From Thauera sp. (GTDB taxonomy: Bacteria > Pseudomonadota > Gammaproteobacteria > Burkholderiales > Rhodocyclaceae): a DNA stretch of 32,000 bases. Of the stretch, positions 3,679-16,891 are shown piece by piece. The stretch spans positions 27,410 to 59,409 of the forward strand of contig NZ_JAVEYL010000023.1 of NCBI RefSeq assembly GCF_034003485.1, in the 5' to 3' direction. A model generated the notes under the pieces. The model saw only the letters and a program-made list of their open reading frames with translations, searched no databases and had not been told where the DNA came from. The stretch's first letter is position 1. Every line of letters begins with the position of its first letter. A program made the translations under genes and the position numbers.

Positions 3679-5583
<1,905 letters not shown>

Positions 5584-5603
5584 TTTACCGCCGCGCGCGC
5601 CGA

Positions 5604-6515
5604 TCACGCCTTTTCAGTACGCCAGTCGCGCAGGGCGGCCAGGGTGTCGTCGAGACCGCCCACCACGCGGATGCCCGGCAGGCGTTTCTGCTTGTCGCGC
5701 ACGGCGGCGCCGCCGGCCCAGATCCCGATCCCGTCGGGCAGCATCGCGCGCAATTCCAGCAGGCCGTCGATCGCCTGGCGTGCCGGGTAGGCGATGCTGA
5801 ACGACAGGCCGACGATGTCGAAGCCGCCGCTCACCGCCGCGCTGCGGATGTCGGCGAGCGGTGTGCGCGTGCCCAGCGACAGGCAGGCGACGCCCTCGGG
5901 TACCAGCATCGCCTCGGCCATGAGCAGGCCGAGCACGTGCTCTTCTTCCGGGAAGGTGGTGAGCAGCACGCGCGGCCTCCCGCCCGGCGTGGCGTGGGCG
6001 CCGATCGCGCTGCGCAGCACGTTCTGCACCTGCTCGGTAAAGAGGTGTTCTTCCGGCACCTCGACCTCGCCGCGCATCCAGGCCTCGCCTACGGCGGCCG
6101 CCAGCGGGGCGACCGTGTCCGCGACGAAGCGCTGCAGTCCCTGCTTCATCAGCGCCTGGCGCAGGGCGGCGTTGAGTTCGACGCTGCGGTGCAGGCGCAC
6201 CAGTTGCAGCAGGCCGTCCTCGCGCCCGGTGCTGGCGGCCTCGGGGCACAGGCAACTGTCGAGCATGCTGGCGAGTTCTTCGATGCTGGCGCCGACGACG
6301 CCTGCCGGACGCCGGCCATGGTCGATCAGACGCCGGATCAGACGCAGTTTCTCGACCTGCTCGGGCGGATACAGGCGTTCGCCGTTGGCGTCCCGGGTCG
6401 GGGCGGGAAAACCGTAGCGCCGCTCCCACACCCGCAAGGTGTCCTTGGCGAGGCCCGTGTCGCGTTCGACGGCGGCGATGCTGAAGGCGGCTTCGGGTGG
6501 CGTGGGAGCGTTCAT
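5604..6515 (-). CDS. MerR-family transcriptional regulator with C-terminal cobalamin-binding domain (CarH/LitR-like)
   Basis: ORF 5604..6518 (TTG at 6518, ATG at 6515). N-terminal MerR HTH: [39 protein letters not shown]. The C-terminal Rossmann-like part carries EEHVLG (the ExHxxG B12-ligand motif), then SLG and a GG motif (WAGGAA). Confidence 0.8.
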
Positions 6516-6558
6516 CAAGGGGGTCTGGTGAGGTGTGAAGGGACGAAACTCTCAGTCG

Positions 6559-6587
6559 ATCTTAGGCGCAGAAAGTTTCTTTGTCCA
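6559..6587 (-). promoter_or_regulatory. candidate sigma70-type promoter of the MerR/LitR-like gene
   Basis: On the minus strand: TGGACA (6587..6582), 17 nt, TAAGAT (6564..6559). The -35 lies inside the 15-bp palindrome. Identified by eye only. Confidence 0.35.
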
Positions 6588-6594
6588 GGACAAA
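6580..6594. promoter_or_regulatory. 15-bp palindrome TTTGTCCAGGACAAA, candidate operator
   Basis: Perfect 7-bp arms around one central base, 65-79 bp upstream of the MerR-like ATG (6515). The same 15-mer (as its reverse complement) recurs at 8427..8441. Confidence 0.5.
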
Positions 6595-6599
6595 CAGCA

Positions 6600-8336
6600 T
6601 CACCCCGTCCCGTTGTTGTCCGCGTTCTCGTCCGCTGCTGCCGCCTGCTGCGGTGTCAAGTCCCCGTCCAGGACAGCGAGCATGCGCGCAGCCTTGGCCA
6701 CCTGCTCGATCGCACGCCGCTCCAGACTGGCCAGGCGCAGCCAGTCCTGCATCACGCGGATGTCGATGCGGGCGTGGGCGCCCTCCAGCAGCAGCGCCTC
6801 CTTGAAGGCCTGGTAGCGCAGCTCCGTTTCCTCCAGGCGGATCGCCACCGCCGCCGCGGAAAAGTCGTCGCGCGCGGCATCGGCGCTTGCGGCCAGGGCG
6901 CCCGTGGCCTGTCGGAAGGCGATTGCAATCGGCTCGATCTCGCTGCCCGGCGGCGAGCCCAGCGTGGTCGCCAGCGCGCACGCCTGACGCACCGCGATGA
7001 CTGCGCTCTCCTGATATTGCAGCGCGCGCAGGCTGTGCGCCAACCCCTCGACCAGCGTGGGCGGCAGACGCATTGCGCTCAGCTTGCGCACATAGTCCGA
7101 AATTGCCGGTGCGAGCGCGTCGAGTGCGCTCGCCTGGCGTTCGATCCAGGGTTCGTCGGGCGGTACCCGGGTGGCCGCGGTGAGCGCCGTCACCGCGAAC
7201 GACTGCGTGCGCCCCAGCTCGAGGCGCAGCGCGCGCAGGGCCAGGTCGGGCACCGCCAGCGAGGGTGCGTCGAGGTGGCGCGGACGGGCGATCTCTTCCT
7301 CGCGGCTGCGGAAGTGGCCGGCCAGGTAACGCAGCAGCGGGCGCGCCAGCGGCATCATCAGCAGCACACCGAGCAGGTTGAAGACGGTGTGGAACATCGC
7401 GATCATCACCGCGGGCGTCGCCGGTTGTTCGAACCACCCGCGCAGCAGGCCGAGCAGGCTGACCAGCAGCGGCAACATGGCGATCGCCATCGCCCCGGTG
7501 ACGAGGTTGAAGATCACGTGGGTCGCCGCGAGCCGGCGCGCGTTCGAGGTGGCGCCGAGCGCCGACAGGAGCGCGGTCGAGGTGGTGCCGATGTTGGTGC
7601 CGATCACCATCGCGCACGCCGCCTCGATCGACATCAGCCCGCCCTGTGCGGCGGTGATGATGATCGCGATCACGGCGCCCGAGGCCTGCATCAGCACGGT
7701 CAGCAGGGTGCCGATGCCGACCAGGACCAGCCAGCCGGTGAAGCCCGGGGCGATGTGGTCCTGCAGGTTCATCGTCGCGCCGAACCCGGAGAAGGTGCCC
7801 TTGAGCACGTCGATGCCGAGGAACAGCACGCCGAAGCCGGCCAGCGCCTGGCCGAGCGCGCGCTGGCGCACCGTGCGTCCGGCCAGCATCAACACCGCGC
7901 CAAAGCCGACGAAGGGCAAGGCGAAGGCGTCGATCTTGAAGCTGAAGCCGAGCGCCGCCACCAGCCAGGCGTTGAGCGTGGTGCCGACGTTGGAGCCGAA
8001 GATCACCCACATCGCGTTCTGCAACGACAGCAGGCCGGTGTTGACGAAGCCGATGCTGGCCACGGTGACCGCGGTCGAGGACTGCACCAGCGCGGTCATC
8101 GTCATGCCGGCGCCCAGACCGCGCAATGGCGTGGCGGTGCCGCGTTCGAGCAGGCCTTCGAGTGCGCGGCCGGCGGCGAGCTTGAGGCCCTCGGTGAGCA
8201 TGTGCATGCCGAGCAGGAAAAGGCCGATGCCGCCGGCCAGCCCGGCAAAGACGTCGAAGGGGGTGAGTGCGGTCGTGTCCAGGGGAAGGTCCTCGGGCGG
8301 AGTGCTCAGGTGCGTGCTCAGGTGCGTGCATCGCAA
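6600..8336 (-). CDS. Na/Pi cotransporter family protein with PhoU-like C-terminal region
   Basis: ORF 6600..8477. Duplicated Na/Pi-cotransporter repeats ([18 protein letters not shown] ... [13 protein letters not shown]; [22 protein letters not shown]) are followed by a helical C-terminal domain. The first ~47 codons of the long ORF have low GC3 and cover promoter palindromes. The real start is therefore probably TTG 8336 or CTG 8282 (uncertain). Confidence 0.8.
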
Positions 8337-8426
8337 GCGTAATACCGTATGAGCGGCTTGGGGAGTGGCATCCGTCGCGGACGACGCCAACCGAGGGGTG
8401 CTGCCGTGTCTGGACAAAATTTTCAA

Positions 8427-8441
8427 TTTGTCCTGGACAAA
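8427..8441. promoter_or_regulatory. 15-bp palindrome TTTGTCCTGGACAAA, candidate operator
   Basis: Exact reverse complement of the site at 6580..6594. It ends 3 nt before a TTGACA -35 hexamer. A half-site TGTCTGGACAAA lies at 8407..8418. Confidence 0.5.
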
Positions 8442-8444
8442 CGA

Positions 8445-8473
8445 TTGACAGTGCGCAAAGCCTGCCCTATCGT
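8445..8473 (+). promoter_or_regulatory. candidate sigma70 promoter of the folE2 operon
   Basis: TTGACA (8445..8450), 17 nt, TATCGT (8468..8473), about 35 nt upstream of ATG 8508. Identified by eye only. Confidence 0.45.
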
Positions 8474-8491
8474 TCAAGCGTCAACCACTCC

Positions 8492-8502
8492 TGTCCAGGA
8501 CA
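8492..8502. promoter_or_regulatory. palindromic core TGTCCAGGACA, third related site
   Basis: It has the same GTCCAGGAC core as the 15-bp palindromes. It lies between the predicted -10 and the ATG at 8508 and overlaps the AGGA ribosome-binding candidate. Confidence 0.4.
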
Positions 8503-8507
8503 CAGCC

Positions 8508-8753
8508 ATGAATGCGAAGATGCACACCAAGCGTGCCGGCATGCTGTTCGCCATCGCTGCCGCCGCCGTAATCCCCATGCAGACGGGCGCCGAGTCGCTT
8601 GCACTTGCGCCGCAGGCCGCCGTCCTCGTCGCCCAGGACTCGCCGACCGTCGTGGACAAGGAGGCCGTTGCTCCGCTCGACCTGATGCTTTTCGTGCATC
8701 GCCCCGACCTGCCGCTGCGCGCCGTCCCCACCAAGTACAAGGACCACTCATGA
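8508..8753 (+). CDS. small hypothetical protein with a predicted signal peptide (81 aa)
   Basis: This is the in-frame part of ORF 8349..8753: [30 protein letters not shown]... It has strong GC3 bias, and its stop overlaps the folE2 ATG (ATGA). I did not recognise a family. Confidence 0.45.
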
Positions 8754-9556
8754 ACGCCCCGGAGAAATTCTTCCTGCCCGACGTCCAGTCCAGCGCCGAC
8801 CATCGCGCGCTCGTCATCCAGCGCGTCGGTGTTCGCGGCCTGCGCTACCCGATGTCGATGCGCGATGTGGACGGTAGCGTGCAGCACACCGTCGTCACGC
8901 TCGAGATGACCGTCGGCCTGCCGGCTGACGTGAAGGGCACGCACATGTCGCGCTTCGTCGAACTGCTCGAGGCAGAACGTGACGCGCTCGACCTCGATGG
9001 TCTGCGCGGCCTGTTCGCCGACATGCTGGTGCGTCTGGAGGCCAGCAGCGGCCGCATCGAGGCGCGCTTCCCGTGGTTCATGAAGAAGACGGCGCCGGTG
9101 TCGGGCGTCGACAGCCTGCTCGACATCGACGCCTGCGTGATCGTCGAGAAGCTCGAAGGCGGTGACACCCGCAGCACGCTGCAGGCGGTGGTGCCGGTGA
9201 CCAGCCTGTGCCCGTGCTCGAAGAAGATCTCGGCCTACGGCGCCCACAACCAGCGCTCGCACATCACGCTCAGCGCCACGCTGCGCGGCGACCTCGGCTT
9301 GCGCGAGCTGGTGCGCATGGCGGAGGAGGAAGCCTCGTGCGAGGTCTTCGGCCTGCTCAAGCGCCCCGACGAGAAGTGGGTCACCGAGCGCGCCTACGAC
9401 AACCCCAAGTTCGTCGAGGACCTGGTGCGCGACATCGCGCTGCGCCTGCGCGCGGATGCCCGCATCGCCGCCTGGTCGGTGCAGTCCGAGAACTTCGAGT
9501 CCATCCACAACCATTCTGCGTACGCCCTGATCGAGGGCGAGAACGCGGCGGAGTGA
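8750..9556 (+). CDS. folE2: GTP cyclohydrolase I type 2 (FolE2/MptA family)
   Basis: This is the in-frame part of ORF 8267..9556 starting [15 protein letters not shown]. Motifs include [22 protein letters not shown] and AHNQRSH, characteristic of FolE2. Confidence 0.9.
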
Positions 9557-9560
9557 TGTC

Positions 9561-10943
9561 ATGAAGATGGGCGAGATCGAGCGCCTGCCGGGCTTCGGCG
9601 GCGAGGGTGGCCGAAGTGACCAGGGCAGGCGGATTGCCGTGATCGGCGGCGGCATTGCCGGGCTGTCCTCCGCCTGGCTGCTCGCGCCGCAGCACCGGGT
9701 GACCTTGTTCGAAGCCGGCAGCTACGTCGGCGGCCACACCAACACCATCGACGTCACGGTGGAGGGGGTCACCCATCCGGTCGACACGGGCTTCCTGGTC
9801 TTCAATCGGCGCACCTACCCCAACCTGTGTGCGCTGTTCGCGCTGCTGCAGGTCGATGCGGTCGAGACCGAGATGAGCTTTGGCCTCAGCCTCGCCGAGC
9901 CCGACCTGGAGTGGGCGGGATCCGACCTCGGCACCGTGTTCGCGCAGCGTTCGAACCTGGTTCGCCCCGCCTTCCTCGGCATGCTGCGCGATATCCTGCG
10001 CTTCAACCGCGAGACCACGCGCATGGCGAGCGAAGGCACCATGCCTGCGCTCGCGCTCGGCGAGTACCTGGCGATCGAAGGCTACTCACGGGCGTTCCGC
10101 GACTGGTACCTGCTGCCGATGGCGGCGGCGATCTGGTCGTGCCCGACGCGCGCGATGCTCGCCTACCCGCTCGCCACCTTCGTGCAGTTCTGCCACAACC
10201 ACGGCCTGCTGCAGATTCTCAACAGGCCCAAATGGATGACGGTGAAGGGCGGCGGGCGCAGCTACGTCAGGAAGATGCTGGCGCGCCTGGACGACGTGCG
10301 GGTGAATGCGCCGGTGCGTCGGGTGGTGCGCAACGCCGACGGCGTGTGGGTGCACACGGCATCGGGGCCAGAGCACTTCGACGAGGTCGTGTTCGCCTGC
10401 CACAGTGATCAGACCCTCGCCCTCCTCGGCGGTGAAGCGAGCCCCGACGAGCGCCGCATCCTCGGTGCGGTGCGCTACCAGCCCAATCTTGCGTACCTGC
10501 ACACCGACACCGCGCTGCTGCCGCGCAGGCAGAAGGTGTGGTCGGCGTGGAACTACCTCGCCGGCGAAGGCGCGCCCGACGCACGCCCGGTGTCGGTGAG
10601 TTACCTCATCAACCGCCTGCAGCCCTTGCCTTTCGAGACGCCGGTCGTGGTGTCGCTGAACCCCTTCACTGAGCCTGCCGCCGACAAGACGATTCGCCGC
10701 ATCGAGTATTCGCACCCGGTGTTCGACCACGGCGCCGTCGACGCCCAGGCCGCCCTGCCCGCGCTGCAGGGCCGCAACCGGAGCTGGTTCGCCGGGGCGT
10801 GGACCGGCTATGGCTTCCACGAGGACGGCTTGAAGTCGGCGGTCGCCGTGGTCGAGGCGATGGGTGTCGACGTGCCCTGGCGTCGCGGCCACGTGCAGGC
10901 GTCGGCCGCGCGCGAGGCGACTGCGCTGGAGGCAGCCGCGTGA
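9561..10943 (+). CDS. FAD-dependent oxidoreductase, amine-oxidase/phytoene-desaturase-like
   Basis: ORF 9561..10943. It has the dinucleotide-binding motif IAVIGGGIAGLSSAWLL...VTLFEAGSYVGGH. Context is immediately upstream of DUF1365 and a CFA-synthase-like gene. Confidence 0.85.
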   Translation: MKMGEIERLPGFGGEGGRSDQGRRIAVIGGGIAGLSSAWLLAPQHRVTLFEAGSYVGGHTNTIDVTVEGVTHPVDTGFLVFNRRTYPNLCALFALLQVDAVETEMSFGLSLAEPDLEWAGSDLGTVFAQRSNLVRPAFLGMLRDILRFNRETTRMASEGTMPALALGEYLAIEGYSRAFRDWYLLPMAAAIWSCPTRAMLAYPLATFVQFCHNHGLLQILNRPKWMTVKGGGRSYVRKMLARLDDVRVNAPVRRVVRNADGVWVHTASGPEHFDEVVFACHSDQTLALLGGEASPDERRILGAVRYQPNLAYLHTDTALLPRRQKVWSAWNYLAGEGAPDARPVSVSYLINRLQPLPFETPVVVSLNPFTEPAADKTIRRIEYSHPVFDHGAVDAQAALPALQGRNRSWFAGAWTGYGFHEDGLKSAVAVVEAMGVDVPWRRGHVQASAAREATALEAAA

Positions 10944-11794
10944 TCAATGCTGCCCGCCAGGCGGACGCCCCGCTGCACGTCGCGCTCGACATGCGCCAGG
11001 AAGCGTCTGCCGACGCCAGCCCGGCCGCGGATGCGCTGCAGCCCGCGGTGTGCTTCGGCGCCGTGATGCACGAGCGCCACGTCCAGGCGCACAACCGCTT
11101 CGTCTACCCCACCGCCTTCCTGCGCCTGCCGCTCTCCAGCCTCGACACCCTGCGCGTGCCCTTGCTCGGCATCGAGCGCGCCAATGTGTTCAGCTTTCGC
11201 AACCGCGACCACGGTGCGCGCGACGGCTCGCCGCTGCTGCCGTGGATTCAGGCGCTGCTGCGCGGGCAGGGGCTGGCGGAAATCTGTGATGGCGAGATCG
11301 TGTTGCAGACCATGCCGCGCATCTTCGGCTTCGTGTTCAATCCGGTCAGCTTCTGGCTCTGCCACGACCGCGAAGGCGTCTTGCGTGTGGTGCTGGCCGA
11401 GGTCAGCAACACCTTCGGCGAGCGCCACAACTACCTGGTGCATCACCCCGAGCTGCGCCCGATCGTGTCGGGTGACGAGTTGCGCGCCACCAAGTGCTTC
11501 CACGTCTCGCCCTTCTTCCCGGTACGTGGCGAATATCGCTTCCGTTTCGAGCAGCGCGGTGCGGTGCATGCCGTGGCGATCGACCTCCTGGACGGCGGCG
11601 AGTTGCAGCTCTCCACTCGCCTGTCCGGTCGCGCCGAAGCGCTCGATGGCCGCGCGATGCGCAAATGGCTGGCGCGCCAGCCTTTCATGACCCTGGGCGT
11701 TGTTGCCCGCATCCATTGGCAGGCCCTGCGCCTTGCGCTGCGGCGGGTGAGCTTCTTCCGCAAGCCGCCACCCCCGATCGAGGAGACCACCTGA
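10940..11794 (+). CDS. DUF1365 family protein
   Basis: ORF 10799..11794. GTG 10940 overlaps the upstream stop (GTGA); the alternative start is ATG 10991. The core AVMHERHVQAHNRFVYPTAFLRLPL ... FGFVFNPVSFWLCHD matches my recollection of DUF1365. Confidence 0.75.
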   Translation: MINAARQADAPLHVALDMRQEASADASPAADALQPAVCFGAVMHERHVQAHNRFVYPTAFLRLPLSSLDTLRVPLLGIERANVFSFRNRDHGARDGSPLLPWIQALLRGQGLAEICDGEIVLQTMPRIFGFVFNPVSFWLCHDREGVLRVVLAEVSNTFGERHNYLVHHPELRPIVSGDELRATKCFHVSPFFPVRGEYRFRFEQRGAVHAVAIDLLDGGELQLSTRLSGRAEALDGRAMRKWLARQPFMTLGVVARIHWQALRLALRRVSFFRKPPPPIEETT

Positions 11795-13035
11795 TGAACG
11801 CAGTCGACCACGCCCTGCAGCCGATTGCCGGCGTCCGCCTCGCGCGCATGCCGCGCGCCACCCGCCTGTGCCTGGAGATGCTCGACCGCCTCGACGGCGG
11901 CGCGCTCGCGGTGGAGTTGCCCGACGGATTGCGCCTGCGCGCCGGTCACGGCCCGCTCGTCGCCCACCTGCGCGTGCGCGACCACGCGGTGTTCGACGAG
12001 GTGCTCGCGCGCGGCGACATCGGCTTCGGCGAGGCCTGGATGGACGGCCTGTGGGACACCGAAGACCTCACCGCGCTGCTGCGCCTGCTGTCGACCAACC
12101 GCAGCCGGCTGCAGGGGGCGATCTACGGGCGCCTGTTCCGCCTGCTCGGCCACCGCCTGCAGCATCTGCTGCGAGCCAACACGCGCACCGGTTCGCGGCG
12201 CAACATCGAGGCCCACTACGACCTCGGCAATGATTTCTATGCGCTGTGGCTCGACCCGACGATGACGTATTCGGCCGCGGTGTTCGCGTCGGCGGACGAG
12301 TCGCTGGCCGATGCCCAGTTGCGCAAGTACCGCCGCATCCTCGACGAACTCGGCGCGCAGCCGGGGCAGACCATCCTCGAGGTCGGCTGCGGCTGGGGCG
12401 GCTTCGCCGAGGTCGCCGCCACCGAGTTCGGCTGCAAGGTGCTCGGCATCACGCTGTCGCCGTCGCAACTCGAATTCGCCCGCGCGCGTGCCGAGCGCGG
12501 TGGCTTTGCCGACCGGGTGGATTTCGAGCTGTGCGACTACCGCGACGTGCGTGGCCAGTACGACCACGTGGTGTCGATCGAGATGATCGAGGCGGTGGGC
12601 GAGCGCTTCTGGCCGACCTACTTCGCCCAGCTTTCCGCGTTGCTCAAGCCCGGCGGGCGCTGCGTGGTGCAGGCGATCACGATCGACGACGCGCTGTTCG
12701 CGCGCTATCGGCGCGGCACCGACTTCATCCAGCGCCACGTCTTCCCCGGGGGCATGCTGCCCAGCCCGGGCGCGGTGGCGCAGCAGGCCGCGCGTGTCGG
12801 CCTCGACGTGGTCGGTGACTTCGCCTTCGGCCGCGATTACGCGCGCACGCTCGCGCACTGGCATCGCCGCTTCGAGGCGCAGTCCGCCGCTGTGCGCGCG
12901 CAGGGCTTCCCCGAGCGCTTCCTGCGCATGTGGCGCTTCTACCTGTCGTATTGCGAGGCGGGCTTCGAGACCGGGGACATCGACGTGCATCACTACGTCT
13001 TTGCCCACGCCGGCGCTGCGATCCGGGGAAGCTGA
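11794..13035 (+). CDS. cyclopropane-fatty-acyl-phospholipid-synthase-like SAM-dependent methyltransferase
   Basis: ORF 11494..13035. ATG 11794 overlaps the upstream stop (TGATG). Motifs: HYDLGNDFYALWLDPTMTYSAAVF, the SAM motif ILEVGCGWGGFA, and SIEMIEAVGERFWPTYF. Confidence 0.9.
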   Translation: MNAVDHALQPIAGVRLARMPRATRLCLEMLDRLDGGALAVELPDGLRLRAGHGPLVAHLRVRDHAVFDEVLARGDIGFGEAWMDGLWDTEDLTALLRLLSTNRSRLQGAIYGRLFRLLGHRLQHLLRANTRTGSRRNIEAHYDLGNDFYALWLDPTMTYSAAVFASADESLADAQLRKYRRILDELGAQPGQTILEVGCGWGGFAEVAATEFGCKVLGITLSPSQLEFARARAERGGFADRVDFELCDYRDVRGQYDHVVSIEMIEAVGERFWPTYFAQLSALLKPGGRCVVQAITIDDALFARYRRGTDFIQRHVFPGGMLPSPGAVAQQAARVGLDVVGDFAFGRDYARTLAHWHRRFEAQSAAVRAQGFPERFLRMWRFYLSYCEAGFETGDIDVHHYVFAHAGAAIRGS

Positions 13036-13598
13036 TGGCCTCGCCGCGCTGGTCCGGAGGCGTTTGCCGCGCGGGCATCCTCGCCCTCTGCCTTGCGGTC
13101 GGCTTCCCGGCGTTCGCCGTCGTGCTGCCACCTTCCGTTGCGGCGCAGCATCCAGAGTTCGACCGCGTCGGCGGCGGGGAGATGCGCTGGCTTGGCTTCA
13201 AGCTCTACGACGCCGCGCTGTGGGCGAGTGCGCGTGGCGAGGCGGCGATGGGCGACGCGCATGTGCTGTCGATTCGCTACGCGCGTGCGATCAGCAGCGA
13301 GCGCCTGGTCTCTGTCAGCCTCGACGAGATTCGCCGCCTCGGCGTCTCCGATGAGGCCCGGCTCGCGCGCTGGGGCGAGGCACTCGCCGCCGCTCTGCCC
13401 TCGGTGGAGGCGGGTGACACACTCGCTGCGCTGCACCGACCGGGCGAGGGCGCGCGGTTCTGGCACCAGGGCGAGCCGAGCGGCGAGATCCTCGACCCCG
13501 AGCTGGCGCGCGCCTTCTTCGCCATCTGGCTTGACCCGCGCACGCGCGAACCGGAATTGCGCGCGCAGTTGCTCGGGCTGGCGGACGGCGGGCGATGA
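13035..13598 (+). CDS. chalcone-isomerase-like family protein, secreted
   Basis: ORF 12930..13598. ATG 13035 overlaps the upstream stop (TGATG). It has a signal peptide (GILALCLAVGFPAFA). The LGFKLYDAALWA and FFAIWLDPRT segments resemble the bacterial chalcone-isomerase-like family often seen in this gene cluster. Confidence 0.65.
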   Translation: MASPRWSGGVCRAGILALCLAVGFPAFAVVLPPSVAAQHPEFDRVGGGEMRWLGFKLYDAALWASARGEAAMGDAHVLSIRYARAISSERLVSVSLDEIRRLGVSDEARLARWGEALAAALPSVEAGDTLAALHRPGEGARFWHQGEPSGEILDPELARAFFAIWLDPRTREPELRAQLLGLADGGR

Positions 13599-14992
13599 AA
13601 CCCGGCGCGCCAGACCCGGCCGATGCGGGCTCGGCGCCGACTACTGCGCTCGCAGCCTACGGCGCGCTCGGTCTTCCGCTGGCGTTTGCCGCGCTGCCGA
13701 TCTACGTCCATGTGCCACGGCTCTACGCCGAAGGGCTGGGTCTGTCGCTGGCGCTGGTCGGTGCGGTGCTGCTGGCCGCCCGTATCGTCGATGCGGTCAC
13801 CGACCCGCTGATCGGCTGGGCCAACGACCGCCTGCCGCGGCGCCGGCTGTGGATCGCGCTCGCGCTGCCGGTGCTGGGCGCGGGCATGGTCGGCCTGCTT
13901 GCGCCGCCGGCCGGGGCGGGCGCGCTGTGGCTGTTTGCGCTGCTGGTGCTGGTGTCGCTGGCGTATTCGGTGGCGACCATCGCCTACAACGCGTGGGGGG
14001 CCGAAGTGGGCACCACGTCCGCGGCGCGTACGCGCTTCGTCGCCAGCCGCGAGGCGTTCGCGCTGGTGGGCGTGGTGCTGGCGGCGGCGCTTCCGGGATT
14101 ACTGGGCGCAGGCGAGCTTGCCGGTCTGGCGCGCCTGGCCTGGGTCTTCCTGCCGCTGCTGGCCGGATTCGGGCTGTGGACGCTGTGGCGCGCGCCCGCG
14201 CCTCCCGCGGTACGCGCGGGAACGGCGCCGGTGTGGGCGGGCTTGCGCGCCGCGCTCGGCGAGCCGGCCTTCGCGCGCCTGCTCGCGGTGTTCGCAGCCA
14301 ACGGCATCGCCGCCGCGATCCCCTCGGCCACCGTGCTGTTCTTCGTCGCCGACGTACTGCAGGCGGCCGAGCTCGGCGGCCTCTTCCTGGTGCTGTATTT
14401 CGTCGCCGCCGCAGCCAGCTTGCCGCTGTGGCTGAGGGTGTCGCAGCGCATCGGCAAGTTGCGCGCCTGGCTGGCCAGCATGGTGCTGGCGGTGGCGGTG
14501 TTCGCGTGGGCAGGTCTGCTCGGCAATGGCGACCTGGTCGCCTACGGCTTGATCTGCGTGCTCTCGGGGCTGGCGCTCGGCGCCGACCTCAGCCTGCCGC
14601 CCTCGCTGCTCGCCGACCTGCTCGCGCGCAGCCGCGCGGAGCGGCATGCAGATGAGCGAGCGGAAGACGGGGGGCGAGCGCAGGGTCGGGTGAAAGCCCA
14701 GCCTGCGTCACTCGAGGCCGGCGCCTGCTTCGGCTGGTGGAACTTCGTCACCAAGGCCAACCTGGCGCTCGCCGCCGGGCTGGCGCTGCCGCTGCTTGCG
14801 CTGCTCGGTTATGCACCCGGTGCACGCGACGCAGCGGCGACCGCCGCGCTTGCCGGTGTGTATGGCTTCGTGCCGGTGGTGCTCAAGCTCGGCGCGATCG
14901 CGCTGTTGTGGCGCTGGCGTGGCTTGATCGAGCCCGCGCTGCCCGTCGCCCCGCCGTTGGCGGCGGCTGTTTGCAGAGGAGGTGAGGCGTGA
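13595..14992 (+). CDS. MFS transporter (GPH/MelB-like)
   Basis: ORF 13595..14992. It has about 12 hydrophobic helices and the RIVDAVTDPLIGWANDR motif typical of the GPH family. ATGA overlaps the upstream gene. Confidence 0.8.
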   Translation: MKPGAPDPADAGSAPTTALAAYGALGLPLAFAALPIYVHVPRLYAEGLGLSLALVGAVLLAARIVDAVTDPLIGWANDRLPRRRLWIALALPVLGAGMVGLLAPPAGAGALWLFALLVLVSLAYSVATIAYNAWGAEVGTTSAARTRFVASREAFALVGVVLAAALPGLLGAGELAGLARLAWVFLPLLAGFGLWTLWRAPAPPAVRAGTAPVWAGLRAALGEPAFARLLAVFAANGIAAAIPSATVLFFVADVLQAAELGGLFLVLYFVAAAASLPLWLRVSQRIGKLRAWLASMVLAVAVFAWAGLLGNGDLVAYGLICVLSGLALGADLSLPPSLLADLLARSRAERHADERAEDGGRAQGRVKAQPASLEAGACFGWWNFVTKANLALAAGLALPLLALLGYAPGARDAAATAALAGVYGFVPVVLKLGAIALLWRWRGLIEPALPVAPPLAAAVCRGGEA

Positions 14993-15522
14993 AACGTTTC
15001 TGGTTGCTATTTGTGGCCCTTTTCGGGCTGTGGGGGTGCAGTACCGTGGACATCGAGGACTACCGCGCGGAAAAGCCCGTGCTCGAACTTCGCGACTACT
15101 TCAACGGCACGCTCGACGCCTGGGGCATTTTCCAGGACCGCTCGGGCAAGGTGGTCAAGCGCTTTCATGTGCTGATCGAGGCGAGCTGGCAGGGCGAGGT
15201 CGGCACGCTCGACGAGCGCTTCACCTATTCCGACGGCAGCACCCAGCGCCGGGTGTGGACCATCACCCGCCTCGGCGCAGGGCGCTACACCGGCCGTGCC
15301 GACGACGTGGTCGGCGAGGCGAACGGCGAAGCGGCGGGCAACGCGCTGCGCTGGCGCTACGTGCTCGCGCTGCCGGTGGATGGCAAGGTGTACAACGTCG
15401 ATTTCGACGACTGGATGTTCCTGATGGACGACAAGGTCATGCTCAACCGGTCGCTGATGAGCAAGTGGGGCTTTCGCCTCGGCGAAGTTACGCTGAGCTT
15501 CGTCAAGCGGGAGGCGGGGTGA
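14989..15522 (+). CDS. DUF3833 family lipoprotein
   Basis: ORF 14989..15522. GTG overlaps the MFS stop (GTGA), with GAGGAGG upstream. It has a lipobox (LFGLWGC). The LRDYFNGTLDAWGIFQDRSGKVV and FDDWMFLMDD segments match my recollection of DUF3833. Confidence 0.75.
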   Translation: MKRFWLLFVALFGLWGCSTVDIEDYRAEKPVLELRDYFNGTLDAWGIFQDRSGKVVKRFHVLIEASWQGEVGTLDERFTYSDGSTQRRVWTITRLGAGRYTGRADDVVGEANGEAAGNALRWRYVLALPVDGKVYNVDFDDWMFLMDDKVMLNRSLMSKWGFRLGEVTLSFVKREAG

Positions 15523-16328
15523 GCAGCGAATCGGGCAGGCTGCGGCGTCTGTTTGCTCCGCTCAACACGCCGATTTGCGACTGGGCGGGCAGGCGGGTGT
15601 GGATCGTCGGCGCCTCGTCGGGCATCGGCGAGGCGCTCGCGCTCGAGCTCTCCCGCCGTGGCGCCCGCCTGGCGCTGTCGGCGCGCAGCGCGGAACGTCT
15701 GGAGGCCGCATGCACGGCGTGCGGGGGCGCACTCGCGCTGCCAATGGATCTGTCCCGCGACGGAGAAATCGAGCAGGCACGCGACCAACTGCTCGCCGCC
15801 TGGGGCGGTATCGACCTCGTCGTGTTCAATGCCGGCACCTATCGCCCGCTGCGCGCCTGGGAGCTAACGGCAGAAGCTGTGCGCGAAACGCTCGCCACCA
15901 ACCTCATCGGCACCATGAGCGGCACCGCCGCCGTGCTGCAGACGCTGCTCGAACAGGGCCATGGCGCGATCGCGCTGGTCGGCAGCGTTGCCGGTTACGG
16001 CGGGCTGCCGAAGGCGACGGTGTATGGCCCGTCCAAGGCCGCGCTGATCAACTTCGCCGAGGTCCTTCACCTCGACCTCGCCCCGCGCGGCATCGACGTA
16101 TTCCTGATCAACCCCGGCTTCGTCGCCACGCCGCTGACCGCGCAGAACGACTTCACCATGCCCGCGCTGCTCACACCGGCGCAGGCTGCCGATGCGATCG
16201 TTGACGGCTTCGCCAGCGGAGCTTTCGAGATCCACTTCCCGAAGCGCTTCACCCGCGTGTTGAAGCTGCTGCAATGGCTGCCGCGGCGCGTCTATTTCGC
16301 GCTGATCCGCCGCGCCACCGGCTTGTGA
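15519..16328 (+). CDS. SDR family oxidoreductase
   Basis: This is the in-frame part of ORF 14982..16328, from GTG 15519 (GTGA overlap). It has the cofactor motif VWIVGASSGIGEA, NAG, and the catalytic YGPSKAA. Confidence 0.85.
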   Translation: MSSESGRLRRLFAPLNTPICDWAGRRVWIVGASSGIGEALALELSRRGARLALSARSAERLEAACTACGGALALPMDLSRDGEIEQARDQLLAAWGGIDLVVFNAGTYRPLRAWELTAEAVRETLATNLIGTMSGTAAVLQTLLEQGHGAIALVGSVAGYGGLPKATVYGPSKAALINFAEVLHLDLAPRGIDVFLINPGFVATPLTAQNDFTMPALLTPAQAADAIVDGFASGAFEIHFPKRFTRVLKLLQWLPRRVYFALIRRATGL

Positions 16329-16339
16329 ACTTGCCCGCC

Positions 16340-16891
16340 ATGACCAAGCTCTACCCTCCGCACCACACGCCCCCGGGCACCTCGACCCCGGGCGCATCCA
16401 GCGTGGGAGCGGGCTTGCCCGCGAACGCAGCCTCGCCGGCAGAACCTTCGCGGGCAAGCCCGCTCCCACGGCAAACGCCCGCACGGCGCCTGGCGCACTT
16501 CTACGAAACCCTCACGCCGGACAGTCTCGCAGCGCTCGACGCGCTCTACGCCCCCGACGCCCGCTTCAAGGACCCCTTCAACGAGGTCACTGGCACCGCC
16601 GCCATCCGCCGCATCTTCGCGCACATGTTCGCCACCACCGACGCGCCGCGCTTCCTGGTCACGGCGTGCATCGAGCAGGGCGAGCAGGCGATGCTGGGCT
16701 GGGAGTTCCACTTCGCGCTGCGCGGGCGCGCGCTGACCGTGCGCGGCGTCACGCATCTGCGCTTCGACGCCGACGGCCGGGTCGTGCTGCACCGCGATTA
16801 CTGGGATGCCGCCGAGGAGCTGTACGAGAAGCTGCCAGTGGTCGGAGGCCTGATGAGGGCGCTCAAGCGCCGGCTGAGCGCGACGGGCTGA
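16340..16891 (+). CDS. NTF2/SnoaL-like family protein
   Basis: ORF 16274..16891. The domain begins at about LAHFYETLTPDSLAALDALYAPDARFKDPFNEV. The start is uncertain: ATG 16340 places a REP-like element inside the N-terminal coding part, and an in-frame GTG lies at 16403. Confidence 0.65.
   Translation: MTKLYPPHHTPPGTSTPGASSVGAGLPANAASPAEPSRASPLPRQTPARRLAHFYETLTPDSLAALDALYAPDARFKDPFNEVTGTAAIRRIFAHMFATTDAPRFLVTACIEQGEQAMLGWEFHFALRGRALTVRGVTHLRFDADGRVVLHRDYWDAAEELYEKLPVVGGLMRALKRRLSATG
16403..16469. repeat. REP-like inverted repeat element, copy 2
   Basis: GTGGGAGCGGGCTTGCCCGCGAA (16403..16425), a 21-nt spacer, then TTCGCGGGCAAGCCCGCTCCCAC (16447..16469). The arms are perfectly complementary and match copy 1 at 2602..2670. 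Confidence 0.8.

Follow-up and report, generated by a model that had tools for sequence, protein, structure and literature searches.

LitR-type light regulators and related systems

CarH and the class I LitR proteins of Thermus thermophilus (PDB 5C8D), Bacillus megaterium, Myxococcus xanthus and Streptomyces are built from three parts: a MerR-type winged helix-turn-helix, a four-helix bundle and a Rossmann domain that binds cobalamin. Their operators overlap or abut σ70 promoters, and CarH targets are carotenoid genes. Hallmarks of CarH proteins dependent on adenosylcobalamin (AdoCbl) are RxWERRY, Wx9EH, the signature D/ExHxxG/P-x41-SxT/V-x22-27-GG and a His as lower axial ligand (PMC9304148). 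An intact Wx9EH separates photoactive CarH from the B12-independent CarA (PMC9304148). A regulator with the same architecture and motifs is encoded in a 32,000-nucleotide (nt) stretch of Thauera sp. DNA (RefSeq assembly GCF_034003485.1, contig NZ_JAVEYL010000023.1, positions 27,410 to 59,409 of the forward strand), referred to here as the window; it is part of contig C18 of the source genome G000. The Thauera locus shares with CarH an operator that overlaps or abuts a σ70-type promoter, whereas its putative targets are furan fatty acid, pterin, photolyase and recQ genes. We propose that AdoCbl-bound LitR represses four loci via a common palindrome in the dark and that light derepresses this regulon, and we assign to this reading a probability of about 0.72.

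In Pseudomonas, class II LitR proteins (PplR1-3/PmlR2), which act with a short LOV (light, oxygen, voltage) anti-repressor, are repressors with a DNA-binding domain of the same family (PMC9758184). They contain only the four-helix bundle, are thought not to bind B12 and rely on the separate LOV protein as light sensor (PMC9758184), whereas the B12 module is complete in the Thauera protein. The class II regulon (phrB, ufaM, SDR [short-chain dehydrogenase/reductase], FAD oxidoreductase, folE, cryB) is of the same kind as the Thauera set: LitR paralogues govern phrB, ufaM, folE and cryB, and folE is light-induced (PMC9758184). Class II operators are also arranged as two sites, the first at the -35 region and the second between the transcription start site and the start codon (P6650 promoter), which parallels the arrangement in Thauera; half-sites and geometry differ, as TGTACA-N12-TGTACA in Pseudomonas stands against TTGTCC-W-GGACAA in Thauera (PMC9758184). 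Both the Rossmann domain with its His and the different operator set the Thauera protein apart from class II. Judged from its sequence, the regulator is of the class I LitR type by the classification in PMC9758184, not of class II or class III.

The class III LitR of Burkholderia multivorans is, like the putative Thauera light regulator, a LitR-family protein of a betaproteobacterium. Its regulon, on which Sumi and colleagues are said to have reported in 2018, reportedly includes folE/cfa-like and photolyase genes. The C-terminal domain of class III LitR does not resemble B12-binding domains and works with a different chromophore (PMC9758184, PMC6739363).

Nearly the same effectors (SDR, GPH symporter, DUF1365/UfaO, UfaD, UfaM, photolyase, FolE2) are found in the σE-ChrR regulon of Rhodobacter sphaeroides (PMC7074977; PMC7380195). 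This RpoE regulon includes RSP1087-1091 (encoding an SDR, a hypothetical protein, a GPH symporter, UfaO/DUF1365 and UfaD), cfaS/ufaM, phrA and folE2 (PMC7074977). The regulon members RSP1087-1089 are dispensable for furan fatty acid synthesis and show no phenotype in the fatty-acid profile (PMC7074977, PMC7380195). In R. sphaeroides and R. palustris, UfaM methylates vaccenate, the FAD-containing, amine-oxidase-like UfaD desaturates the product, and UfaO of the DUF1365 family adds oxygen derived from O2 to yield the furan fatty acid 9M5-FuFA (PMC7380195). The R. palustris genes RPA2571-2569 are contiguous in the order D-O-M (PMC7380195). In R. sphaeroides, singlet oxygen acts via an extracytoplasmic function sigma/anti-sigma pair; in contrast, the promoters at the Thauera locus look σ70-type, and ChrR was not found in the 88.8%-complete source genome. 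Furthermore, the Thauera effector genes are joined with folE2 and ufaM in one ten-gene operon, unlike those of R. sphaeroides.

A first-pass annotation made from the sequence alone had named three such links, namely to the singlet-oxygen regulon of R. sphaeroides, to methylated or furan fatty acids and to LitR control of folE and cfa-like genes, and all three agree with the work cited above (PMC7074977, PMC7380195, PMC9758184). It had read the Thauera locus as a candidate light and photo-oxidative stress regulon. The light-sensor part of this reading has support in the sequence, and the singlet-oxygen part stands by analogy only. Our literature search, in which subscription journals were poorly covered so that it is weak evidence of novelty, found no paper on a class I, B12-type LitR governing this gene set. 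It is credible that the system is a well-conserved re-wiring of known photoprotection parts and not a new kind of system.

The Thauera regulator

Domains were called with Pfam and equivalogs with NCBIfam, and the window was checked for photolyases with tblastn. The source genome comprises 3.9 Mb and is 88.8% complete. As relatives, 24 Thauera genomes and 16 genomes from other families of the same order were sampled, and 80 homologues of the regulator with their loci were collected from public genomes. Gene content, regulator motifs, operator statistics, promoter layout, conservation and co-inheritance are direct observations on these sequences.

The litR/carH-type gene (5604..6518, minus strand) encodes 304 amino acids (aa) from its likely ATG at 6515. 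The protein consists of a MerR winged helix-turn-helix (Pfam MerR_1, 6.9e-14), a four-helix bundle (B12-binding_2) and a Rossmann cobalamin-binding domain (B12-binding). Residues 10-261 match Thermus thermophilus CarH (5c8d) with E=4e-33, and the Trp, the Glu-His pair and the axial His of the Thermus protein are all aligned. The recognition-helix motif reads RVWERRY (residues 29-35), Wx9EH is intact in the four-helix bundle (residues 147-158), and the Rossmann B12 signature is present as EEHVLG-x41-SFS-x27-GG (residues 192-270), with Ser at the third position of SxT/V. Wx9(E/D)H and ExHxxG are kept in all 80 homologues. In addition, the source genome contains three cobalamin riboswitches as well as PduO- and CobA-type adenosyltransferases, which suggests that it can supply the AdoCbl chromophore. 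The sensor looks like a direct light sensor.

The first-pass annotation had described this fusion of a MerR domain with a cobalamin-binding domain as a CarH/LitR-like protein, located about 2 kb from a ten-gene plus-strand unit with mostly overlapping stop and start codons. Pfam, the match to 5c8d and the motifs confirm the assignment of the regulator. Likewise, Pfam domains were recovered for every gene that it had named, with a small open reading frame (ORF) at 8508-8753 as the tenth gene, and direct reading of the junctions verified every overlap. The distance between the start of litR (6518/6515) and that of the operon (8508) is 2.0 kb, with a Na/Pi cotransporter gene in between.

Palindromes and promoters

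The perfect 15-mer TTTGTCCWGGACAAA occurs four times in the 3.9-Mb genome, compared to 0.001 expected occurrences. Genome-wide, there are no near-copies with one mismatch, two with two mismatches and 42 with three. When at most one mismatch is allowed, TGTCCWGGACA has four matches in the window versus 0.25 expected. The shared palindrome that had been postulated before is, therefore, well founded. Two of the perfect copies are located in the window, at 6580-6594 in the litR promoter and at 8427-8441 in the operon promoter. The third, on contig C79, is followed after 5 nt by the ATG of a gene for a class I cyclobutane pyrimidine dimer photolyase-like protein. The fourth, on contig C71, separates a minus-strand cryptochrome operon from a plus-strand DUF3429-ABC1 kinase gene pair. 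At this locus (C71:1-8028, L006), the operon encodes an FAD/NAD-binding oxidoreductase of 346 aa, a divergent photolyase/cryptochrome of 541 aa and a DASH cryptochrome. No photolyase was detected in the window by tblastn, in line with the first-pass annotation; the three photolyase-family genes of the source genome are located elsewhere, all behind the same palindrome. The same pairing of sites and genes was found at orthologous photolyase and cryptochrome loci of five other Thauera genomes (G012, G010, G022, G018, G005). The operon, litR-recQ and the photolyase and cryptochrome genes appear to form a putative regulon under one palindrome.

An extra perfect palindrome is present in G022 between a gene for a methyl-accepting chemotaxis protein and an Abhydrolase_3 esterase gene (L117, G022:C1:791191-799191, site 4001-4013). 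This site may mark a species-specific regulon member. Two other candidates in the window were discarded: TGTCTGGACAAA at 8407-8418, considered as a third operon site, is not conserved in an alignment of 12 species, and CGTCCAGGACA at 6665-6675, within the Na/Pi gene at its 3' end, differs from the 13-mer at three positions.

Only two σ70-like matches were found in the 11.9 kb between 5400 and 17300, and both adjoin palindromes. At the predicted litR promoter/operator (6559..6594, minus strand), the palindrome TTTGTCCAGGACAAA (6580-6594) includes the -35 box TGGACA, which is followed by a 17-nt spacer and the -10 box TAAGAT (6564-6559). Since this palindrome includes the -35 box, autorepression is proposed. 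A palindrome about 70-80 nt upstream of litR is conserved across Thauera loci.

The predicted operon promoter/operator (8427..8502, plus strand) comprises two palindromes around a σ70-like promoter. The distal palindrome (8427-8441) is followed after 3 nt by the -35 box TTGACA (8445-8450), a 17-nt spacer and the -10 box TATCGT (8468-8473), a 10/12 match to σ70. The proximal palindrome TGTCCAGGACA (8492-8502) is separated by 5 nt from the ATG at 8508, and its AGGA may double as ribosome-binding site. The centres of the two palindromes are 63 bp apart, which corresponds to six helical turns. In the 12-species alignment of Thauera-type loci, mean column identity across the operon promoter region is 63%, and nearly all invariant columns belong to the two palindromes, the -35 box (TTGAC) and the -10 box (TA...T). 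The 63-bp spacing was found in 38 of the 80 loci; by palindrome pairs, spacings were 63 bp (31 pairs), 64 bp (seven), 62 bp (two) and 61 bp (one).

In the Rhodocyclaceae locus L051, where the Na/Pi gene is missing, palindromes 63 bp apart bracket the face-to-face promoters of litR and of the operon beginning with the small ORF and folE2. This divergent layout is probably ancestral, and the Na/Pi gene parts the two promoters in Thauera. A third palindrome of L051 lies within the coding sequence of the small ORF and is read as FVQDK. In six loci of some Thauera species (L040, L041, L044, L049, L052, L054), litR alone is inverted and divergent from recQ; in the window, litR shares the minus strand with recQ and the Na/Pi gene. 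Within the 190 bp between recQ and litR, the litR-inverted loci carry TTGTCGTGGACAA, a palindrome with one mismatch. This means that recQ adjoins an operator in both layouts.

The ten-gene operon and its neighbours

The operon (8508-16891, plus strand) consists of ten translationally coupled genes. A scan of its sequence revealed neither a terminator-like site nor an extra promoter-like site inside it. The first gene (8508..8753, plus strand) is the small ORF of 81 aa with a signal-peptide-like N-terminus, which overlaps folE2 by ATGA. No Pfam or NCBIfam family matched it; yet it is conserved at the protein level in 15 Rhodocyclaceae loci (L029, L033, L036, L037, L040, L041, L044-L046, L048, L049, L051-L054). 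Members of this small-protein family have 63-106 aa; between their signal- or transmembrane-like N-terminus and the conserved L(L/M)LF.HR.DL near the C-terminus, the sequence is variable. In these 15 loci, the start codon is invariably located 5-6 nt past the proximal palindrome.

The second gene, folE2 (8750..9556, plus strand), encodes GTP cyclohydrolase IB (Pfam GCHY-1, 8.6e-85; NCBIfam NF010200, 268.7 bits with a cut-off of 215). A canonical FolE (PF01227) is encoded elsewhere in the source genome, so that FolE2 is a second isozyme. After a gap of 4 nt, three genes at 9561-13035 follow in the order UfaD-like, UfaO-like, UfaM-like, as in RPA2571-2569. The UfaD-like protein (9561..10943, plus strand) is FAD amine-oxidase-like (Pfam Amino_oxidase/NAD_binding_8), and its gene precedes those for DUF1365 and CMAS. 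The UfaO-like DUF1365 protein (10940..11794, plus strand; Pfam DUF1365, 4.9e-75) is present in a single copy in the source genome. The UfaM-like protein (11794..13035, plus strand) is a CMAS-family S-adenosylmethionine-dependent methyltransferase (Pfam CMAS, 1.1e-85), the sole one found in this genome, and scores under all NCBIfam equivalog cut-offs for cyclopropane fatty acid (CFA) synthase (276 versus 400).

The remaining genes of the operon, all on the plus strand, encode a chalcone-isomerase-like protein with an N-terminal signal sequence (13035..13598; Chalcone_3, PF16036, 2.5e-10), a transporter of the MFS_2/GPH family (13595..14992; Pfam MFS_2, 2.6e-50) that is the counterpart of RSP1089, a DUF3833 protein with a lipoprotein-like signal containing LWGC (14989..15522; Pfam DUF3833, 3.2e-72), an SDR as counterpart of RSP1087 (15519..16328; Pfam adh_short, 3.3e-43, and NCBIfam SDR models) and a SnoaL_2/NTF2-like protein (16325..16891; Pfam SnoaL_2, 1.4e-21). 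For the latter, GTG 16325, ATG 16340 and ATG 16274 are start candidates. DUF3833, together with the SDR and the GPH transporter, probably corresponds to RSP1087-1089. Because Chalcone_3 and DUF3833 carry export signals, there are hints that both proteins may function in envelope lipid handling.

Stop and start codons overlap as ATGA at 8750 and 13595, as GTGA at 10940, 14989 and 15519, and as TGATG at 11792-11796 (ATG 11794) and 13033-13037 (ATG 13035). A further GTGA is possible at 16325 in the last operon gene. Downstream of the operon, in the window between 17000 and 32000, the GC content drops from about 0.70 to 0.50-0.62.

On the other side of litR, recQ (3679..5607, minus strand) was identified by the Pfam domains DEAD, Helicase_C, RecQ_Zn_bind, RQC and HRDC and by NCBIfam TIGR01389 (800 bits with a cut-off of 640). 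Its start candidates are GTG 5607 and ATG 5583/5574. As GTG 5607 overlaps the litR stop codon, recQ is probably co-transcribed with litR. In Thauera and Azoarcus loci, recQ adjoins litR either co-directionally or divergently with the operator in between. The Na/Pi cotransporter gene (6600..8477, minus strand; Pfam Na_Pi_cotrans, 3.6e-50) has an uncertain start with only TTG candidates at 8336-8477. Its longest frame runs through the palindromes and, consequently, its promoter must overlap the operator region of the operon. Among the 80 loci, a Na/Pi cotransporter gene between regulator and operon is confined to those of the Thauera type.

Distribution and co-inheritance

The phylogenetic profile that the first-pass annotation had proposed as a check shows that regulator and operon travel together. 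The regulator is encoded in 19 of the 24 Thauera genomes, and these same genomes also carry DUF1365, at a distance of a few kb at most, along with one to five palindromes. Four Thauera genomes that are 99-100% complete (G003, G016, G019, G024) lack regulator, DUF1365 and palindrome alike, and a 68% complete one (G014) has one palindrome only. Among the four regulator-less genomes, three retain a single photolyase without a palindrome and one has no photolyase. As regulator, operon and palindromes were lost together in these four, the light regulon behaves as a dispensable module in the genus. Co-inheritance is given without a statistic because the relatives are non-independent samples.

In other families of the order, a strong LitR homologue was found in 7 of the 16 genomes, and all seven have DUF1365. 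In six of them, the best LitR match shares its contig with DUF1365 at a distance of 2-4 kb; in G030, the LitR-like match near DUF1365, at about 5 kb, is a weaker second one. At most of the 80 betaproteobacterial loci, LitR is encoded at most about 5 kb from the gene series (FolE2)-UfaD-UfaO-UfaM-Chalcone_3-MFS_2-DUF3833-SDR-SnoaL. At those of these loci that are outside Thauera, litR is directly divergent from the ufa-type operon, and operator variants are found in the shared litR-operon intergenic region of the 80-locus set. Taxa with linked litR and operon include Thauera, Azoarcus, Zoogloea, Ca. Methylophosphatis, Casimicrobiaceae and Polynucleobacter.

Proposed mechanism and alternatives

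From the family of the regulator we infer cobalamin binding, a response to light and repression, and we also infer the lipid product. In the dark, AdoCbl-bound LitR would oligomerise and bind TTGTCC-W-GGACAA. At the operon promoter, occupation of both palindromes would exclude RNA polymerase, possibly with formation of a DNA loop. At the litR promoter, binding would cause autorepression that includes recQ on the same transcript. UV-to-green light would photolyse the Co-C bond, whereupon the oligomer would break up and the four loci would be derepressed. UfaM, UfaD and UfaO could then provide furan fatty acids in membrane phospholipids, where these would serve as singlet-oxygen scavengers. The extra GTP cyclohydrolase IB might feed pterin/folate synthesis, plausibly for the antenna cofactors of photolyases, and photorepair enzymes and RecQ would likewise be induced.

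More tentatively, the twin palindromes, which keep exactly 63 bp in many betaproteobacterial lineages, might represent a new binding mode, in which one oligomer held together by AdoCbl loops or wraps about 60 bp between two of its pairs of DNA-binding domains and clamps the promoter or promoters, with recQ and possibly the Na/Pi gene being light-responsive. We consider this possible but doubtful. Such a 63-bp clamp, which in L051 would span face-to-face promoters, would differ from the Thermus CarH-DNA structure with its contiguous direct-repeat operator.

Several observations weigh against control by an AdoCbl-dependent light sensor with furan fatty acids as output. The Pfam B12-binding domain scores 31.5 bits, just below the gathering cut-off of 32.1. 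The NCBIfam CarH equivalog model NF052513 (TransRegCarH) yields 143.6 bits compared to a cut-off of 400, so that the regulator is related to the curated CarH proteins but no equivalog of them. Of the Gly pair at the dimer-dimer interface of the Thermus protein, only one of two aligns with Gly. The putative orthology of the UfaM-, UfaD- and UfaO-like proteins to RSP2144, RSP1091 and RSP1090 of R. sphaeroides is based on family and synteny. Thauera are denitrifiers that often live in dark habitats, and what ecological benefit a light regulon would bring there is not obvious. Finally, the Thermus/Bacillus CarH operator is composed of 3-4 tandem 11-bp direct repeats nnnnTnnACAn, whereas that of Thauera is an inverted repeat, single or paired at 63 bp (PMC9304148). 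Since operator design is plastic in the CarH family (PMC9304148), the direct-repeat criterion is weakly defining.

The palindrome might be bound by another factor, e.g. an oxidative-stress regulator, with LitR merely travelling with the island. Co-inheritance within one genus reflects shared history and would be compatible with this. However, the palindrome is present in the regulator's own promoter at nearly every locus and in several families, and no gene for a different regulator is linked to this locus. The palindrome's half-site GGACA includes ACA, the core of the consensus nnnnTnnACAn of the CarH repeats, and TGGACA fits TnnACA (PMC9304148). Moreover, genomes in which LitR was lost have no palindromes even where photolyase is kept. 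We therefore regard another binding factor as unlikely.

A second alternative concerns the signal: LitR could sense the availability or form of B12 instead of light. The motif alone is no proof of photochemistry, as M. xanthus CarA is B12-independent despite a preserved B12 motif (PMC9304148). Against a pure B12 sensor, which we judge quite unlikely, stand the intact and invariant Wx9EH and the nature of the targets, i.e. light-dependent enzymes (photolyase, DASH cryptochrome) and genes for photo-oxidative protection. In Pseudomonas, light induces the same targets (PMC9758184).

Main control of the operon by a singlet-oxygen pathway of the σE/ChrR type or by another stress pathway, with LitR confined to fine tuning, is very unlikely. 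The RpoE regulon of R. sphaeroides does comprise this gene set (PMC7074977), but no ChrR cupin (PF12973, Cupin_7) was found in the 88.8%-complete genome, and the σ70-like operon promoter with its 17-nt spacer is bracketed by palindromes, with no other promoter-like site within the operon. That LitR is an activator which remodels promoters in the manner of other members of the MerR superfamily, to which it belongs, is highly improbable: the spacers have the optimal 17 nt, compared to 19-20 nt at promoters activated by MerR, the sites are located outside or over the -35 box and in the leader instead of between -35 and -10, and the characterised LitR/CarH proteins are all repressors (PMC9758184, PMC9304148).

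Significance

AdoCbl-dependent repression of this regulon would widen the role of B12 photoreceptors: a CarH-type module appears to drive proteobacterial photo-oxidative-stress genes and not carotenoid synthesis. At least four different sensors (σE-ChrR, LOV with class II LitR, class III LitR and B12-type LitR) would have taken over one and the same effector regulon. The compact operator with four perfect sites per genome and the fixed 63-bp geometry make the culturable Thauera a testable system. Five genes for accessory, putative envelope/redox proteins (Chalcone_3-like, GPH transporter, DUF3833, SDR, SnoaL) and the small, putatively secreted protein are candidate light-regulated partners of furan fatty acid synthesis. 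For the ecology of the genus, the locus suggests that denitrifiers of wastewater and sediment may keep a full light response.

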